Shown: positions 6,233 to 38,375 of the stretch, piece by piece
How positions within the stretch are numbered: the first letter of the stretch is position 1
Layout: each line of letters opens with the position of its first letter
NCBI GenBank assembly: GCA_024277065.1
Contig: JAJRVY010000272.1
Coordinates: 6,767-70,766 of the forward strand
Source: Planctomycetota bacterium
GTDB taxonomy: Bacteria; Planctomycetota; JAJSAM01; JAJVHW01
Length of the DNA: 64,000 nucleotides
Direction of reading: 5' to 3'
The notes under the pieces: model-generated
The model's input: the letters and a program-made list of their open reading frames with translations, nothing else
The model's database searches: none
What the model was told of the DNA's origin: nothing
Program-made: the position numbers and the translations under genes

Positions 6233-7312
6233 ATGGTACCCTCCCCCGCCGTGAGACTCCGACCTGTCGCCGTGCCGCTCCTCCTCCTCGCCGCCTGCGG
6301 TGCGTCGGGGCCGGCGCCGGTGCAGCGGCCGCCGCAGCCGGGGGACCTGCCGGACGAGACAGAGTTCCTGGCGCAGGTCGATCGCAGCCGGGGCACGCGC
6401 GACTGCTTCGCCGTCATCCGCGACCCGGTGTTCGTGCGCGCCACGGGCCGCCACGGCATCGCGGACGACGAGATCGTCATGGGTGTCGATCTCGGGACCA
6501 CGCAGGTGGCGTATCCGATCCAGCTCCTCAACTTCCACGAGATCGTGGAGCACACGACCCAGGGACTGGATCTGCTGGCGTGCTGGTGACCGCTCTGCCG
6601 GACGGGCGTCGTGCACGTCCGCGAGGTGAACGGCCGCTCGTTGCGTTTCGGGCACCGCGGCTGGCTCTGGAACAACGCGTTCCTGCTCTACGACAAGGAG
6701 ACGGACAGCATCTGGCACCACCTGACGGGCTGGGCGATGTCCGGTCCGCTGCGCGGTGCGTCCCTGCCGCGCTTCCCGACCGTACAGACGACGTTCGCCG
6801 CCTGGCGCGCGGAGTATCCCGCGACCCTCGTGCTCCCCAAGCCCGCGGGTGACGAGCGCCCGCTCGATCGCGACGTCTACGCGGGCCGCAACTCGGGACT
6901 CGCCTTCGGCCTCGGCGTGGACCTGCCGCAGGCGTTCAGGTTGTACCCGTTCGAGGCGCTCGCCGCGGCCGGCGGCGTCGTCACGGAGACCGTGGGCGAG
7001 ATGGCGCTGGTCGTCGCGCTGGACCCGGTCGCGCGCAGCGCGTTCGCCTACGAGAGCCGCACGGACGGCGACGATCTCGACCTGGTGCTCGTCGCGAACG
7101 CGGAACAGGGACCCGTGCTGCGTGAGCGCGACGGCAGACGCGCGTGGCGCCTGCGGAGCGGCAGGCCCGCGCCGGGATCGGGTGCCGGCACGCGTCTGCG
7201 GCCTCTCCTCGCAAGCCCCTGGGAGACCTTCGCCTGGCGCCGCCAACATCCTGCCGGGACCGTCTGGCCGGCGTCCGCGGAGGGCTCCGGTGTCCCCGCC
7301 GAGGGACGCTGA
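6233..7312 (+). CDS. DUF3179-family lipoprotein with an in-frame TGA (6587-6589) at the first Cys of the conserved CPLC motif. Candidate selenoprotein (W-U-P-L-C).
   Basis: Track ORFs 6233..6589 and 6611..7312 are in the same frame and separated by a single TGA. Both halves carry DUF3179 hallmarks (HEIVEHT...LLACW[TGA]PLCRTGVV...LRFGHRGWLWNNAFLLYDKETDSIWHHLTG). Lipobox LLLAAC near the N-terminus. Confidence 0.6.
6599..6621 (+). promoter_or_regulatory. Candidate SECIS-like stem-loop 9 nt downstream of the in-frame UGA.
   Basis: CGGACG / CGUCCG 6-bp stem with an 11-nt loop (GGCGUCGUGCA) that could add 2 further bp. Confidence 0.3.
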
Positions 7313-17214: not shown

Positions 17215-20172
17215 ATGGTCTCTCTCCGCTCCATCCCGGTTCTGCTGCCGGCCCTCTTCATCTTGGCCCTCGCGGCGGGGCCGGCCCGGGCCGAGGCGCC
17301 TGCCGAACCATCGCTCGCATTCTCCGAAACACCACCGCTCTCCCGACTGAAGGTCGGAACCCTCACGTCGTCGGGCAGGAGCACGAAGAAGTTCGCCGGC
17401 ACCGGAACGCTCACGTTCCTCGGCGACGTCGAGATCGATCTCGACGTCGTCGCCAGGAACAAGGTGAACAAGAAGCACCCGGCCCGTACGAGGGCCACTT
17501 ACATCCTCAAGTCTCCTCGAGGTGCGCTGCCCCGGGTGAGGGTGAAGTTCGTGATGCGGGGCGGCGCACTCTCCTCCCTCTCCGTGTCGCTCAAGGCCAA
17601 GGTGAAGAACGCGGCCGCCATCGCATCCACGGAACCCGGCGTCTATGAGATTCGGGGCATCCCGCCCCTCCGGGGAATCGACGTCCGCGGCGCCGCTCCG
17701 GTACTCGACCATGGCGAGCACCTCGGGCTGTCGGTGAAGAGCCAGACGGACAGGAAGGGCCGCACCACTCACTCGATCACTTCACGGTCGAAGAGTCCGA
17801 AGGTGAAGGGGAAGCTGACGATCGAAGGCGCGCCAGAGACGGTCGTGAGCGTCAACTTGAAGTACACCCTGTTCAAGAAGGGCCTGGACGGCGTCAGTCT
17901 CCGGACCGGCGCCTTCGCGATCGCGCCGCTCTCCGGCGTCGTCGCGGACGCACCCGGCGTCGTCGAGGTCAGGAACAGCCTGAGCAGTGCACCTGTCGGG
18001 TCCGGCGGCACGTTCACGATCAACGCCTTCGCCGAGGGCCGGCAGCTCGCCATGGGCGCGACATCCGACGGCACGCTCCTTCTCGGCTGGCTGGGAGAGG
18101 GGCGTACGACGCTGAGCGCCCGCAGCACGGCCGAGGTCATGCTCTTCGTGGCCGGTTCGATGTTCACGGTCCCTCTCGACCGCGTGGACACGGTGATCGA
18201 CGAGATCGCTGCATCGCAGCAGGCGGCAGACCTCGCCGTCGAGGTCGAGGCGGCGCTCTGGTCGGGCGCCTCGACGTTCGCGGAGTTGGTCGCAGACGTC
18301 GCGCCGCAGCTCTCCGATCTCACCGACCAACTCATCGCCGACGCCGGTGGGAAGAGCCTCCTGATCGACCCGATCGCGGGCAGCAGCGGCATCGACGTAA
18401 GCGCCGAGGGCTTCCAGAACGTCGTGATCACGAACTACTACCGCCGCCGCGCGCACGCTTTCATCCAGCGGCTCGGTCACACGCCCGAAGACGGGATCGG
18501 CTTCATCCAGGACGAGGCGGACCTCACGGATGTCGTGATCTCTCCCTCTCCGGGGATCAGTTCGGTGATCGGACTCCTCATCAGTCTCGGCAGCGGCGCC
18601 TACACGCCCGTCGAGAAGGGACCGTTCACGCTGCCGCTGACCCCCGACCGCGCGAGCTCGACCCTATACAAGGTCACGGTGGTGGGACTCGGCTTCTCGC
18701 AGGGAGACTTCGGCCAGCTGAATCAGACGCAGCGTACGTGGCACGCGCGCGTCGCCATCGAGACGATCGTACTCGATATCATCGGCCCCTGGCTGGCTGC
18801 GGCGGCGCTCCCGAGCGGCCCCCAGCAGGGGATGCAGCAGGTGGGTATTCGAATCGCCGGAGGCGGCGGGTTCGACAGGTTCACGGCCGAACTGCTCGTC
18901 GCCGTGCCTCTCGCCGCCGAGCAGGCCGCGGGCGGTGACTTCACCGGCGCCATCGGGGGGATACTCACCGCCTTGAACACCGACGACACGCTCACGACCC
19001 TGTTCACCGTCGCGCTCGCCGGGGCGGTGGAGAACGTGCTCGGCAAGGGAGCGGCCGAGGGAGTCACGGGTTTCATGGCCAAGTTCGCGCTCGAGGTACT
19101 GGCGCCTCTGGACATCAGCCTGAAGATCACCGACACCGTGGTCCAAGGTCTCCATATCGCGAAATCCAACAACGCGGACGTCTGGAACGTGGAGGTCACC
19201 AGCGCCAAGGTCTCGCTCGTACCCGAGTTCGAGATCGTCCGGAACACCAGCGGGCGGGTGGATCAGCCGGTCTTCGAGGCGATCGTCCAGGACGGCGAGG
19301 AACTGAACCTCACGTACAAGTGGTCGTGCGGCGACAAGGGCCGGATCGGCGACACCAAGGGCCACTTCGGCACGGAGTTCGAGTCCAGCGACGGGCAGGT
19401 CGTCTTCACTCCCGACGTCGGCGCCGAGGGAACCACTCACGTCACGGTCGAGGTGGAAGAGATCGTCGGCAGCGGTCGGAGACCGATCGGCAAGGCCAGA
19501 GCCAAGGTCGAGATCATCCGCCGCACCGTCCTCATCATCGAGCGGAAGGCATCGCTTGCCCCGAATGAGAGCAGGGACTTCGAAGTGCGCGTCGATCCAC
19601 CCGTCACCGACGGCACAGTCTTCTATCGCTGGAGCGGAACCGAGGACTTCGGACAGGCGGACGCCGCATTCGGCGAGGACACGAGCGACACGATCGTGAA
19701 CTACGTCGCCGGCGACGCAGAGGGGACGGACTCGCTTCACTGCGAGGCATTCCTCGTTCGCAACGGTCAGACCGAGTCGCTCGGCAAGGCAGACGGCGAG
19801 ATTCGCGTCGAGTTGCGCAAGAGCATCATCCTGGGCACCTACGTGTACGACGTGGTGGCCGTCACGGAAAACACCACATGTGGCGCCGCTCGGTGCCGGG
19901 TCGCCATCCCCGATGGCGCGATTCGTCTCGACCTGCGAGCCTACGGCCACACTGACCCCTCCTTCCACGGAAGCGAGATCAACAAGTCCGCCGTCCGGCT
20001 GGGCGACGGACGCTGGCGCTTCGGTTCGACGACCAACTCGCCGGACGACGCGTTCTGGAACCTGTCCGGGCTCTGTAGTAGTAGCGCGGAGAGCGTGACC
20101 GATGCGAAAGCCGTCTATGACGGCCGATTCGCCGCTTTCATCTACGAGATCGAGGTCACCTACGAGGAATGA
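17215..20172 (+). CDS. Large secreted protein (about 985 aa) of unknown function.
   Basis: GGAGG before ATG 17215. Signal peptide MVSLRSIPVLLPALFILALAAGPARA. No recognisable domain, few Cys, Lys-rich N-terminal module, about 60 % GC. The ORF-track start at 16993 adds R-rich junk. Confidence 0.75.
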   Translation: MVSLRSIPVLLPALFILALAAGPARAEAPAEPSLAFSETPPLSRLKVGTLTSSGRSTKKFAGTGTLTFLGDVEIDLDVVARNKVNKKHPARTRATYILKSPRGALPRVRVKFVMRGGALSSLSVSLKAKVKNAAAIASTEPGVYEIRGIPPLRGIDVRGAAPVLDHGEHLGLSVKSQTDRKGRTTHSITSRSKSPKVKGKLTIEGAPETVVSVNLKYTLFKKGLDGVSLRTGAFAIAPLSGVVADAPGVVEVRNSLSSAPVGSGGTFTINAFAEGRQLAMGATSDGTLLLGWLGEGRTTLSARSTAEVMLFVAGSMFTVPLDRVDTVIDEIAASQQAADLAVEVEAALWSGASTFAELVADVAPQLSDLTDQLIADAGGKSLLIDPIAGSSGIDVSAEGFQNVVITNYYRRRAHAFIQRLGHTPEDGIGFIQDEADLTDVVISPSPGISSVIGLLISLGSGAYTPVEKGPFTLPLTPDRASSTLYKVTVVGLGFSQGDFGQLNQTQRTWHARVAIETIVLDIIGPWLAAAALPSGPQQGMQQVGIRIAGGGGFDRFTAELLVAVPLAAEQAAGGDFTGAIGGILTALNTDDTLTTLFTVALAGAVENVLGKGAAEGVTGFMAKFALEVLAPLDISLKITDTVVQGLHIAKSNNADVWNVEVTSAKVSLVPEFEIVRNTSGRVDQPVFEAIVQDGEELNLTYKWSCGDKGRIGDTKGHFGTEFESSDGQVVFTPDVGAEGTTHVTVEVEEIVGSGRRPIGKARAKVEIIRRTVLIIERKASLAPNESRDFEVRVDPPVTDGTVFYRWSGTEDFGQADAAFGEDTSDTIVNYVAGDAEGTDSLHCEAFLVRNGQTESLGKADGEIRVELRKSIILGTYVYDVVAVTENTTCGAARCRVAIPDGAIRLDLRAYGHTDPSFHGSEINKSAVRLGDGRWRFGSTTNSPDDAFWNLSGLCSSSAESVTDAKAVYDGRFAAFIYEIEVTYEE

Positions 20173-34330: not shown

Positions 34331-35689
34331 ATGCCCGAGCGACTCTTCGGAACCGACGGAATACGCGGTCCCGCCGGCGTTGGAAAACTCGCGCCGCCCG
34401 CACTCGCCCGCCTCGGCCTCGCCGTGGCGCGTACGCTGCGCGCATGTCCTCGCGACCGCCCGCCGCGCGCCCTGCTCGGACGCGACACGCGACTCTCCGG
34501 CCCGTCGGTCACCGCAGCGATGACCGCCGGGCTGCTCACGGGGGGCGTCGCCGTGGACGATGGCGGTGTGCTACCCACGCCGGCCGTGGCGCTGCTCACG
34601 CGACGCCGCGCCTACGACGTCGGCGTCGTGATCTCGGCCTCCCACAACCCGTGGCCCGACAACGGCGTCAAGCTGCTCGGAGCCGGCGGCGCGAAGCTCT
34701 CGGACGAAGCGGAGGCGGCGATCGAGTCGGCCTACGCCGATCCCGCGCTCGAGGCTGCCGCGGACCCGCGCGACGTCGCGCGCCCACGCCCACTCGACGA
34801 CGCCCGCGACGCCTACGAGCGCGCGCTCGCCACCGAGTTCCGCGACGTGCGCCTGCGTCGCCTGCACGTCGTCATCGACGCCGCCCACGGCGCCCAGAGC
34901 GGGATCGCACGCCGCGTGCTGCGGCGCCTGGGCGCCCGCGTGACCGAGTTGCACGCGGCGCCGGACGGACGCAACATCAACGAGTCGTGCGGCGCCATGC
35001 ACACGCGCCCACTGCGGCGCGCCGTCAAGCAGCTCGGGGCGGCCGTCGGCATCGCCTTCGACGGCGACGCGGACCGCGTACAGCTCGTGGACGAGAAGGG
35101 CCGCCTGCGCGACGGCGACGTGATCCTCGCCGCGCTGGCGCCGCGGCTCCTCGCGCGGCGCAGACTGCCCGGGCGCACCGTCGTCGGTACGCTCATGACC
35201 AACGCCGCGCTCGAGGCGCACCTCGCCGCAGAGGGCATCCGGCTCGTGCGCACGCCGGTCGGCGACCGGCACATCGTGGCGGCCATGACGGAGCACGGCT
35301 ACGGGCTCGGCGGTGAGCCCTCGGGGCACGTTCTCGTCCCCCGCCGCGGGCTGCTCACGGGTGACGGGCTGGTGGCCGCCGTCGCCTGTCTGCGCATCCT
35401 CGCGAACGAGCGCATCCGCGCCTCCGAACTGGCAGCGGGCTACCGCGCGTGGCCGCTCGAGATCGTGTCGCTGCGCGTCGCGCGCAAGACGCCGCTGTCC
35501 CGTCTGAAGCGCTCGTCCGCGGCCGTCCGCGAGGCCGAGGAGTGCTTCGCGGGGAAGGCACGCATCGTCGTGCGCTACAGCGGCACGGAGCCGAAGGTGC
35601 GCGTGATGGTGGAGGCCCGGCGACGACGCGACGTGGACGCGGCCATGGCCCCCATCGTCGCCGCGCTGCGCGCGGAGGTCGGCGCATGA
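34331..35689 (+). CDS. glmM: Phosphoglucosamine mutase.
   Basis: FGTDGIRG, SASHNPWPDNG and GDADR motifs. 452 aa. Confidence 0.9.
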   Translation: MPERLFGTDGIRGPAGVGKLAPPALARLGLAVARTLRACPRDRPPRALLGRDTRLSGPSVTAAMTAGLLTGGVAVDDGGVLPTPAVALLTRRRAYDVGVVISASHNPWPDNGVKLLGAGGAKLSDEAEAAIESAYADPALEAAADPRDVARPRPLDDARDAYERALATEFRDVRLRRLHVVIDAAHGAQSGIARRVLRRLGARVTELHAAPDGRNINESCGAMHTRPLRRAVKQLGAAVGIAFDGDADRVQLVDEKGRLRDGDVILAALAPRLLARRRLPGRTVVGTLMTNAALEAHLAAEGIRLVRTPVGDRHIVAAMTEHGYGLGGEPSGHVLVPRRGLLTGDGLVAAVACLRILANERIRASELAAGYRAWPLEIVSLRVARKTPLSRLKRSSAAVREAEECFAGKARIVVRYSGTEPKVRVMVEARRRRDVDAAMAPIVAALRAEVGA

Positions 35690-36552
35690 TCGCCCTCGCC
35701 CTCGATACGAGCGGTCCCGTCGGCAGCGTGGCGGTGCTGAGGACCTGTCCGGGAACAAGTGCGTCGACCACCGAGGGCGCGCGAGACGGTTCAGGGCAAG
35801 GCGCGCCGACGACGGCGACGGCGACTCATGGCGAAGCCGAGTCGCGGAGGAGGCACAACGCAGCCCTGGACCGTCGCAGCCGACCGAATGGAGCGGTTGT
35901 TTCCGGACAGGTCCTGAACGGCGAGGCGCCGCAGGCGCAGGTCCTCGCGTTGCGGACGATCGACGACGGCATGCGACGCGGCGTCGAGCTCTTCCCGGCG
36001 ATCGAGGCCGCACTCGACGAGGCGGGCGTCCGCGCCCGCGAGATCAGCGTGGTCGCGGTGGGCACCGGACCGGGGAGCTACACGGGGCTGCGCGTCGGCG
36101 TCACGGCGGCGCGCGCGCTGGCCTACGCCACCGGGGCCGAGCTGATGGGCGTGCCGAGCTGCGACGCACTCGCCGCGGCCGCTCCGCAGGACGCCGGCAC
36201 GCTCGCCGTCGTCGTGGACGCCCGCGTGCGCGCCGTCTACGTCGCCGTCTACACACGCGCAGCGGATGGGCGCCGGCAGCGCGCGGGACCACCGCGGATC
36301 CTCCCGCCCGCGGAGGCCGCGGAGGCCATTCCGGGCGGCGCTCTCGTCGTCGGCGACGCGCTCGACGCCCACGGTGAGGCGTTCGCGCACTTCCGCTGCG
36401 CTCCGCAGCCGCGCAACGCGGGTGCCCCGGAGATCGCGCGGCTCGCGCTGGCCGCCAGGGCGCGCGGCGAACACCAGACGATCGACGCGGTGGTGCCGCT
36501 CTACCTCAGGAAGACCGCAGCAGAGCGCAAGCTCGAGGAAGGACGGGCATGA
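35686..36552 (+). CDS. tsaB: tRNA threonylcarbamoyladenosine biosynthesis protein TsaB, with a 58-codon in-frame insertion.
   Basis: MIALALDTSG...VGTGPGSYTGLRVGV. An insertion sits between the VAVLR strand and ..VLALRTIDDG... Confidence 0.8.
   Translation: MIALALDTSGPVGSVAVLRTCPGTSASTTEGARDGSGQGAPTTATATHGEAESRRRHNAALDRRSRPNGAVVSGQVLNGEAPQAQVLALRTIDDGMRRGVELFPAIEAALDEAGVRAREISVVAVGTGPGSYTGLRVGVTAARALAYATGAELMGVPSCDALAAAAPQDAGTLAVVVDARVRAVYVAVYTRAADGRRQRAGPPRILPPAEAAEAIPGGALVVGDALDAHGEAFAHFRCAPQPRNAGAPEIARLALAARARGEHQTIDAVVPLYLRKTAAERKLEEGRA
35741..35914. repeat. Inverted-repeat-flanked 174-bp segment inserted in frame within tsaB (MITE-like or long hairpin).
   Basis: GGACCTGTCCGGGAACAA at 35741-35758 matches its reverse complement TTGTTtCCGGACAGGTCC at 35897-35914 at 17 of 18 positions. 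The insertion encodes a low-complexity peptide absent from canonical TsaB. Confidence 0.5.
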
Positions 36553-37733
36553 CGGCGATCGACGGACGGTCCGAGACCTCTGCGGCGGGCGACCACCCGC
36601 TGCCCCCGCTCGACGCACGTGCCCGCGTCTGGGCCGAGATCGACCTCGGCGCGCTCGAACGCAATTTCCGCTACCTGGAACAGCGGCTGCCCGAGACGAC
36701 GCGCATCATGGCCGTGCTCAAGGCGAACGCGTACGGGCACGGCGCCGTGATCACCGCGCGCAAGCTCGCGGAGCTCGGCGTGGCGATGCTCGGGGTCGGG
36801 GACTCCAGCGAGGCACTCGAGTTGCGCGAGGCCGGCATCGACGCTCCCGTGCTCGTGCTCGGCGCCATCGTCCCGGGTGAGATGGAGGCGCTGGTCCGCG
36901 GCGACATCGCGACGTGCATCCACTCGCACGACCGCGCGCGTCTGCTGTCGAACGTCGCGCGCGCCCTCGGCAGGCGGGTGCGCGTACACATCAAGATCGA
37001 CACCGGCATGGGGCGCCTCGGCGTGCGACCCGAGGTCGCGTGCGGGCTCGCCAAGCAGCTCGCGGACGATCCGCACATCGTACTCGAGGGCGTCTGCACG
37101 CACTACGGCAGCGCCGCGTCGCCGGTGCCCTTCCACACGTCCGAGCAGATCTCGCTCTTCGTGCGCATCGTCCAGGAGATCCGCGCCTTCGGCGTGCAAC
37201 CGAAGTTCCTGCACGCCAGCAACTCGGCCGCCGTCTTCTCGACCCTCTCGGAGCACTTCTCGATGGCGCGCGTCGGTCTGGCCCTGTTCGGTCTCAACCC
37301 CGGCAACCTGCCGCTCGGGACGCCGCCCATCGACCCCGTCCTGGCGCTGCGCTCCCAGGTGGCGTTCCTCAAGGACGTCCCCGAGGGCACGCCGGTGGGC
37401 TACAATCGCATGTGCCTGACACGCCGCGCGACGCGCCTCGCCGTGCTGCCCCTCGGCTACAACGACGGACTGCCCTACGCGCTCTCGAACCGCGCCTTCG
37501 TGCTGATCCGCGGCGAACGCGCCCCCGTCCTCGGTGCCATCTCCATGGACTACACGACGGTGGACGTGACGGACATCGCCGGCGTGGGCGTCGGCGACCG
37601 CGCCACCGTCATCGGCGCCGACGGCAAGCAGCGCATCACCGTCGAGGACCTGGCACGCACGATCGGCACGATCCCGTACGAGATCACGACGCGTCTCGGC
37701 ATCCGCGTCGCCCGCATCCCCGTCTCACACTGA
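36549..37733 (+). CDS. alr: Alanine racemase.
   Basis: VLKANAYGHG PLP-lysine motif. ATGA overlap with tsaB. Confidence 0.9.
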   Translation: MTAIDGRSETSAAGDHPLPPLDARARVWAEIDLGALERNFRYLEQRLPETTRIMAVLKANAYGHGAVITARKLAELGVAMLGVGDSSEALELREAGIDAPVLVLGAIVPGEMEALVRGDIATCIHSHDRARLLSNVARALGRRVRVHIKIDTGMGRLGVRPEVACGLAKQLADDPHIVLEGVCTHYGSAASPVPFHTSEQISLFVRIVQEIRAFGVQPKFLHASNSAAVFSTLSEHFSMARVGLALFGLNPGNLPLGTPPIDPVLALRSQVAFLKDVPEGTPVGYNRMCLTRRATRLAVLPLGYNDGLPYALSNRAFVLIRGERAPVLGAISMDYTTVDVTDIAGVGVGDRATVIGADGKQRITVEDLARTIGTIPYEITTRLGIRVARIPVSH

Positions 37734-37896
37734 TCCCGTCTCGATCGCCGCGCACCCGGCGCGCGGCTCGGCTCCGCAGTGAGTCGCGTCGTCGAGGCGC
37801 CTTGCCCCGCGCCGTCTCGCTCGCCCTCGGTCCTACGAGCTCATTCCTGCGCGGGCCCATGCGGAACGCGAGCGCGTGCGTGATGGGAGGATGTGC

Positions 37897-38375
37897 ATGA
37901 CGAAGTCGTGGATCTGGTCGCGCGCGCTCGGCGCGGCGGCCCTGGCTCCCTTCCTCCTGGCCGCCCTCCTCCTGGCCGCCTGGGCGCCGGACGGGCCGGC
38001 AAGGGGGGAGAAGGTGGACGTCGCAGCGCTTCTGGACACGTTCTCCGCCGCATGGCCGGCGGACCGCATCGACCACCGCACGCCCGGCGACGACTCCTGG
38101 AAGGTCTACGTGCGCACGCTGCGCGACGCCGTCGCGACCGGCGACGCGGCCGCGCTACGCGACGGCCTGCAGCACGAGAACCGGCAGGTGCGGGCCCTGT
38201 GCGCCCGGGCCCTGGGCTACCTCGCTCGCCCCGCGTCGGCCGCGCCACTGACGCGTGCGCTCGCGGACGGCTGGGCGACGTGGTCCACCGGGCGGGGCCG
38301 GTCGAGACGCCCAACCCGCTCGCAGCGCTCGACGACTACCTCACCGCGCGGGCCCCTACCTCAGAAGCTCGGTGA
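37897..38375 (+). pseudogene. HEAT-repeat (PBS-lyase-like) protein with an apparent frameshift near 38285.
   Basis: GGGAGGA RBS. Signal/TM N-terminus. ..ENRQVRALCARALGYLARPASAAPLTRALADG, then the plausible sequence continues in another frame (..DVVHRAGPVETPNPLAALDDYLTARAP*). Confidence 0.3.

Follow-up and report, generated by a model that had tools for sequence, protein, structure and literature searches.

What is a 174-bp segment bounded by inverted repeats doing inside tsaB, a conserved housekeeping gene, in a planctomycete, and how did it come to be there? An earlier note on this locus, which had correctly described the segment as in frame and free of stop codons within tsaB, offered a MITE-like element or a long RNA-level hairpin as possible answers. 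We analysed a window of 64,000 nucleotides of contig JAJRVY010000272.1, from the Planctomycetota bacterium assembly GCA_024277065.1, and we consider it likely that the segment is a copy of a non-autonomous DNA transposon (MITE) belonging to a low-copy family of this planctomycete lineage. The coordinates on which the argument depends are collected in Table 1.

Table 1. Features of the tsaB insertion and its surroundings, in positions of the window.
Feature	Position	Strand	Remarks
tsaB	35686-36552	+	288 aa; TIGR03725 TsaB (E=9e-44) and PF00814
Target-site duplication TGA, left copy	35738-35740	+	3 bp
MITE-like element, in frame	35741-35914	+	174 bp
Left terminal inverted repeat, GGACCTGTCCGGGAACAA	35741-35758	+	18 bp
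Left arm of inner stem, GACGGTTCAGGGC	35785-35797	+	pairs with 35863-35875 in RNA and DNA folds
GGCGAC-GGCGAC tandem duplication	35814-35825	+	tsaB copy only; encodes an extra Ser-Pro in the minus-1 frame
Right arm of inner stem, GCCCTGGACCGTC	35863-35875	+	13/13 pairs, including one G-U in sense RNA
Right terminal inverted repeat, TTGTTTCCGGACAGGTCC	35897-35914	+	17/18 complementary; the one mismatch is G-U in sense RNA
Target-site duplication TGA, right copy	35915-35917	+	3 bp
Second family copy, decayed and truncated	37762-37858	-	spacer downstream of alr, 1.9 kb from the tsaB insert

The product of the host gene scores 149.9 bits against the TIGR03725 equivalog model, for which the cut-off is 69.3, and the GPGSYTGLR block is kept across our 21-sequence TsaB alignment. 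Homologues are 228-236 aa long, as against 288 aa in the window. The gene lies in the cluster cdaA-cdaR-glmM-tsaB-alr, with its ATG overlapping the glmM stop and its TGA overlapping the alr start; these ATGA overlaps (35686-35689 and 36549-36552), which are also found in the gene calls of relatives, suggest translational coupling in an operon.

The ends of the segment are well defined. As the earlier note had stated, its 18-bp terminal inverted repeats match at 17 of 18 positions and stand 138 nt apart, and they are not a product of base composition, since none of 100 dinucleotide shuffles contained two matches to the 18-mer. In the 64-kb window these are the only two sites that match it with three or fewer mismatches. 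A further pair of inverted repeats at 20058/20220 (5 and 6 mismatches) was at chance expectation and was rejected.

Comparison with relatives indicates that the segment was added to the gene. It is missing from all 20 aligned relatives (20/20), including the closest, at about 77-79% identity, and the syntenic DNA of L001 (the Planctomycetota_PLA2_1 bin), L002 and L167 is likewise without it. TGA stands on both sides, and identical TNA-type flanks would be expected by chance at about 1e-4. Excising the element together with one TGA (177 bp) yields ...GTG CTG AAC GGC GAG..., or VAVL-NGEAPQAQ-VLA, with a loop of 8 residues as in P0002, P0004 and P0006. Because excision brings back a loop as long as that of the closest relatives, we regard the two TGA triplets as a 3-bp target-site duplication. 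The added DNA, duplicated TGA included, thus comes to 177 bp or 59 codons, residues 19-77 of the protein. The alignment and the search for flanking duplications that the earlier note had proposed both came out in favour of insertion. Its statement that the segment replaces the beta2-beta3 loop of TsaB was right as to location and wrong as to replacement, for the native NGEAPQAQ remains downstream of the insert.

At the level of the protein, the insert falls between beta2 (residues 13-20) and beta3 (residues 84-92), and comparisons with PDB structures place it before YeaZ residue ~37, again in the beta2-beta3 interval. An AlphaFold model of the window TsaB (mean pLDDT 82; beta1 at 2-7, beta2 and beta3 as above) leaves residues 21-83 unstructured: the mean pLDDT of blocks of 10 residues is 38-62 there, and it exceeds 90 in most blocks outside that range. 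The predicted TsaB fold thus appears intact, with the insert as a disordered excursion from it, and on the strength of this model we propose that the allele is tolerated; we infer that the window TsaB is functional. The same loop reaches ~19 residues among relatives in the 21-sequence alignment, and such variation in length fits a tolerated site. Independent short expansions of this loop are seen in P0009, P0011 and P0065 (alignment columns 26-90). A second variable insertion, of up to ~35 residues, follows the conserved CDALA block in P0007-P0011 (columns 173-210), which makes two indel-tolerant surface sites in the TsaB of the window's clade.

The composition of the insert is unlike that of the gene around it. 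GC content at codon positions 1, 2 and 3 is 0.66, 0.73 and 0.68 in the insert, against 0.81, 0.56 and 0.90 in the rest of tsaB, and GC3 of glmM and alr is 0.90-0.93. Many of the insert's codons are rare, and its mean log codon frequency is far below that of the rest of tsaB. The flat GC profile and the rare codons indicate that the insert is DNA of non-coding type that translation has not reshaped. Translation of the element in six frames gives low-complexity peptides whose only database matches are TsaB itself and one other protein, P0121, and at 174 bp the element is without coding capacity for a transposase. We also considered two devices by which an insert might be removed or skipped. An intein has His-Asn followed by Cys, Ser or Thr at its C-terminal junction. 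The 58 low-complexity residues here appear to have no such junction, and an intein was rejected, as was programmed translational bypass, for which CTGA at both junctions might have been used and which is unneeded because the insert is open in frame.

The earlier note had also proposed a search for additional copies, and this brought two further loci to light. One lies in the window itself, just downstream of alr, in the orientation opposite to that of the tsaB copy. It matches the element at 72% over 106 nt by blastn and with E=2.5e-5 by nhmmer, its core is ~86% identical with a 7-nt gap, and its local alignment score of 93 compares with 57+-3.9 (maximum 70) in 100 shuffles. This copy is a relic: it keeps the core and a degenerate left terminal repeat (11/18), neither a right terminal repeat nor TNA flanks are recognisable in it, and it folds no better than shuffled sequence (z=0.49).

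The spacer that holds the relic, between alr and a convergent GDSL-lipase gene (37734-38355), has features of its own. It is ~620 bp long, against 34 bp in L002, 89 bp in L001 and 433 bp in L167. In L167 the homologous spacer contains a foldback element of another kind (6472-6809), ~338 bp long, whose 88-nt arms show 73% complementarity, and hairpin or MITE-like elements may have landed repeatedly in the alr-lipase spacer of this lineage. An open reading frame from ATG 37897 begins with a signal-peptide-like N-terminus, has a weak match to HEAT_2 (24.8 bits, below the cut-off) and continues into the lipase gene, antisense to it. Such a frame may represent a fragment of a gene, or else a gene that has suffered a frameshift. 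At the other edge of the spacer, alr ends in PVSH where its L002 counterpart ends in PV, an extension of two codons (37715-37750). A near-direct repeat, ATCCCCGTCTCA / ATCCC-GTCTCG, brackets the alr stop codon, and the relic abuts this TGA, which would fit an old insertion at a TNA target followed by decay. Read on the plus strand, relic and tsaB insert are antisense to each other, with a predicted RNA duplex of -171.8 kcal/mol as compared with -122+-6.5 for shuffled partners. It is a further possibility that the two pair over ~80 nt, provided that one glmM-tsaB-alr transcript reads into the spacer.

The other locus emerged when the protein collection was queried with a concatenation of the element's six-frame translations. 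P0121 is a TPR protein of 472 aa, encoded on an NCBI contig of 7,048 bp, and its N-terminus is laid out as MRP + S + 56 residues + S + 56 residues + LSRLLSLAVLL.... The two units are tandem in-frame copies in the element's minus-1 frame, placed after codon 3 with a 171-nt period and in the orientation opposite to that in tsaB. One residue separates them from each other, and 6-7 of 56 separate each from the tsaB copy. At the site of the GGCGAC duplication the P0121 copies are 2 residues shorter than the tsaB copy, and the copy downstream of alr is 7 nt shorter. Seven orthologues of P0121, of 345-360 aa, are without the units and start with M-R/K-x-x followed by a signal peptide, and with 114 residues taken away P0121 would measure 358 aa, exactly like its orthologue P0124. 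It follows from these lengths, and from the orthologues without the units, that the second locus also represents an in-frame insertion within a coding region. As judged from the protein sequence, the Ser codons around the first unit are compatible with a TCA duplication, after the second unit Leu stands where a Ser codon would be expected, and one terminal repeat of the units appears altered, at about 15-16/18.

The double insertion moves the signal peptide of P0121 (residues 1-135) ~115 residues away from the annotated start. A TTG within the terminal repeat (TTGTTCCCGGACAGG) would yield MFPDRSLSRLLSLAVLL... in P0121, and it is plausible from the sequence that this TTG acts as a replacement start giving the protein a normal signal peptide.

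The nearest relatives of the window TsaB are P0003 and P0004, those of the body of P0121 are P0123 and P0124, and the two pairs share their sources: JGI sample 3300041024 and the ENA PLA2_1 bin. This shared provenance indicates that P0121 derives from the window's lineage, and the two contigs are probably from the same MAG. The family as we know it consists of at least three full copies and one partial copy, at three loci on two contigs of one lineage, and it has entered two unrelated open reading frames, tsaB with one copy and the TPR gene with two in tandem. With empty sites in the relatives, the TGA duplication and copies at two other loci, the suggestion of a MITE-like element in the earlier note is well supported.

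Wider searches indicate how restricted this family is. A metagenome scan with a block of 19 specified bases from the core, common to both window copies, returned 43 loci, all of them seed-only matches. The element had no match in 162 collected loci, and plasmids, phages and viral contigs yielded no copies and nothing beyond chance. Searching exhaustively by HMMER for the peptide of the minus-1 frame yielded only an unrelated repeat-derived open reading frame, P0122. Since no copies turned up in JGI metagenomes, in the loci of relatives, or among plasmids, phages and viral contigs, the family appears to be very narrow. By contrast with these searches, a scan of the genome collection with the 18-nt terminal repeat matched more than 116 unrelated loci in many phyla; among the matches listed, none had a partner repeat and none was from the source genome. 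In one frame the 18-mer reads DLSGNK, a leucine-rich-repeat consensus, and a recurring context among the matches listed is GAC CTG TCC GGC AAC AAG CTG, the leucine-rich-repeat motif DLSGNKL. The many unrelated matches arise because the terminal repeat encodes this consensus, and the coincidence is a caution for the design of search patterns from terminal repeats.

Could the structure of the segment, rather than its mobility, be the reason for its presence? A long hairpin whose inner stem measures 13 bp is predicted for the element, both as RNA (-109.7 kcal/mol, z=-6.2, for the sense strand; -94.5 kcal/mol, z=-4.05, for the antisense) and as single-stranded DNA (-61.7 kcal/mol, z=-5.1). The long RNA hairpin of the earlier note therefore stands as a prediction. 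If it had been selected, as a regulatory or stabilising structure in the glmM-tsaB-alr mRNA, the family would be a module that works at the RNA level, and the stronger fold of the sense strand is in keeping with this, as is the fact that both stem mismatches are G-U pairs on that strand. Two G-U pairs on the same strand arise in ~25% of cases by chance, which makes them weak evidence for RNA selection. Moreover, the orientations are mixed, sense in tsaB and antisense in P0121 and after alr; the relic downstream of alr folds no better than shuffled sequence; Rfam held no match to the element, and a scan for promoters and terminators found no consensus. The target duplication and the empty sites, for their part, point to insertion at the level of DNA. 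We consider selection for RNA structure very unlikely to explain the segment: given copies in both orientations and the empty Rfam result, the simplest view of the hairpin is that the inverted repeats give rise to it incidentally.

Three readings at the level of DNA also have to be weighed. A break in tsaB might have been repaired by copying the sequence downstream of alr in inverted orientation, a one-off templated insertion without transposition, and it is true that the sole other copy in the 64 kb lies only 1.9 kb away and is inverted, which would be unlikely for a small family scattered at random. Yet that copy is only ~86% identical in its core, it could not have templated a complete element because it is without the right third, right terminal repeat included, and it resembles the tsaB copy less than do the two units in P0121, which belongs to another contig. 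Templated repair would also fail to account for the perfect TNA-type duplication, and we find it highly improbable. We find it hardly credible that the segment is a REPIN or REP-type element mobilised by a RAYT (IS200/IS605-like) transposase rather than a MITE of DDE type, even though it is a short, palindromic, GC-rich dispersed repeat with a stable single-stranded DNA hairpin and tandem copies in P0121. The tsaB copy has a 3-bp target duplication, and we know of no target duplication in HUH-type (RAYT) transposition. As described in PMC3733652, moreover, REPs are 20-40 bp long, compared with 174 bp here, and bear a GTAG or CGTC tag at one end, whereas the ends of our element begin GGAC. Least credible of all is an ordinary lineage-specific expansion of the TsaB loop by slippage or duplication, or an artefact of assembly. 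The loop does vary in length, with extra residues in the three relatives noted above, but the occurrence of the same sequence at two other loci already contradicts an expansion confined to TsaB, as do the terminal inverted repeats, the target duplication and the non-coding base composition; an assembly error within a 73-kb contig would not leave an insertion that is both in frame and flanked by a target duplication.

Taking the segment to be a MITE, we propose that its 18-bp terminal repeats would be recognised by a DDE transposase, most likely from the IS1031 group, whose gene lies elsewhere in the genome. The element would have inserted at a 5'-TNA-3' target, in tsaB the TGA spanning codons 18 and 19, and 3 bp would have been duplicated in the process. 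Element and duplication, 177 bp together, would have entered the frame without a stop. As 177 is a multiple of three, tsaB stays open, and the N-terminal domain of its product gains the 59 residues in the loop of the beta2-beta3 hairpin. The strong hairpin would follow from the element's inverted repeats.

Several features hint at the identity of the parent. The ends of the element begin GGACCTGTC, and 8 of their first 9 bases are those of ISLrh (P about 1e-4); over the whole terminal repeat 11 of 17 positions are identical (P about 6e-4), in a comparison with this one element only. ISLrh, whose terminal repeat is GAACCTGTCTAGTATCT, was inserted at TGA, and elements of the IS1031 group prefer TNA and generate exclusively a 3-bp repeat (PMC12016507). 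A three-nucleotide target is a feature of this group, in which IS1237 and ISLxx6 are relatives of ISLrh (PMC2516522), and our element shares with it both the TNA target and the 3-bp repeat; the terminal repeats of the element and of ISLrh both begin G-R-ACCTGTC. The TGA/TGA flanks and the ISLrh-like ends support the action of an IS1031-type DDE transposase in trans, and on this likeness of ends and flanks we judge the chance of an IS1031-type (IS5 family) parent to be about even, or slightly better. Unlike the insertion sequences of the group, which are about 860-930 bp, the element has 174 bp and is without a transposase gene. No autonomous insertion sequence with these terminal repeats was found in the window or among the genome-collection matches listed, and the transposase family is proposed from the traces described here; the element may still be mobile today.

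Insertion of this type is already known in other bacteria, and the repeat family itself is previously undescribed. Rickettsia palindromic elements (RPEs) are said to have been described by Ogata et al. in 2000 and 2002. By the account in PMC10969869, they are about 100-150 bp long, lie in frame in protein-coding genes and number dozens of copies. Like RPEs, the family described here is a short, palindromic, dispersed repeat (168-174 bp) that sits in frame in unrelated genes, housekeeping genes included, and adds a peptide segment compatible with the host fold, in our case by predicted structure. Unlike RPEs, it belongs to another phylum and a high-GC genome, has 3 known genic copies in 2 genes instead of dozens, and combines well-marked 18-bp terminal inverted repeats with a TNA target duplication, features that point to a DDE transposase. 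Membership in the RPE sequence families is implausible, given the phylum and the base composition, and the resemblance is functional only.

QMITE2 of Coxiella burnetii, which has variable direct repeats of 7-11 nt and ~50 copies per genome (PMC5896051), offers another comparison. Both are non-autonomous elements in a size range of 150-190 bp with terminal inverted and direct repeats, sometimes in frame in open reading frames or at gene ends; our element differs in its 3-bp TGA duplication and its apparently low copy number. Canonical Harbinger elements also make 3-bp target duplications, and Tourist-like MITEs are similar in size and in their terminal inverted repeats. PIF/Harbinger transposons have been compared with the IS5 family in a phylogeny (PMC12730594). 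The Tourist-like MITEs derived from PIF/Harbinger are eukaryotic, unlike our element, and the likeness is one of size, ends and duplication.

It is tempting to go further and ask whether the family is an RPE-like, coding-compatible MITE of Planctomycetota that repeatedly colonises open reading frames. The unit, of 168 or 174 bp, gives a multiple of three whenever the 3-bp duplication is added, three of its frames are open, and open reading frames hold 3 of the 4 copies known, a tally that is biased because the P0121 locus came from a protein search. We think such specialisation unlikely. If it were true, a coding-compatible MITE would be adding disordered loops and N-terminal extensions to housekeeping and secreted proteins, and would be doing so in a free-living, high-GC bacterium.

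As a MITE copy, the segment in tsaB would be a clean and well-bounded case of a transposon fragment turned part of a conserved housekeeping protein, one for which the empty site, the target duplication and the sister copies can all be identified. Such inserts inflate protein lengths and can create misleading N-terminal extensions, as in P0121, and annotation should allow for them. The insertion also marks out the beta2-beta3 hairpin in TsaB as tolerant of ~60 extra residues, and with it a phenomenon familiar from RPEs and a small number of other MITEs would extend to an uncultured lineage of Planctomycetota.
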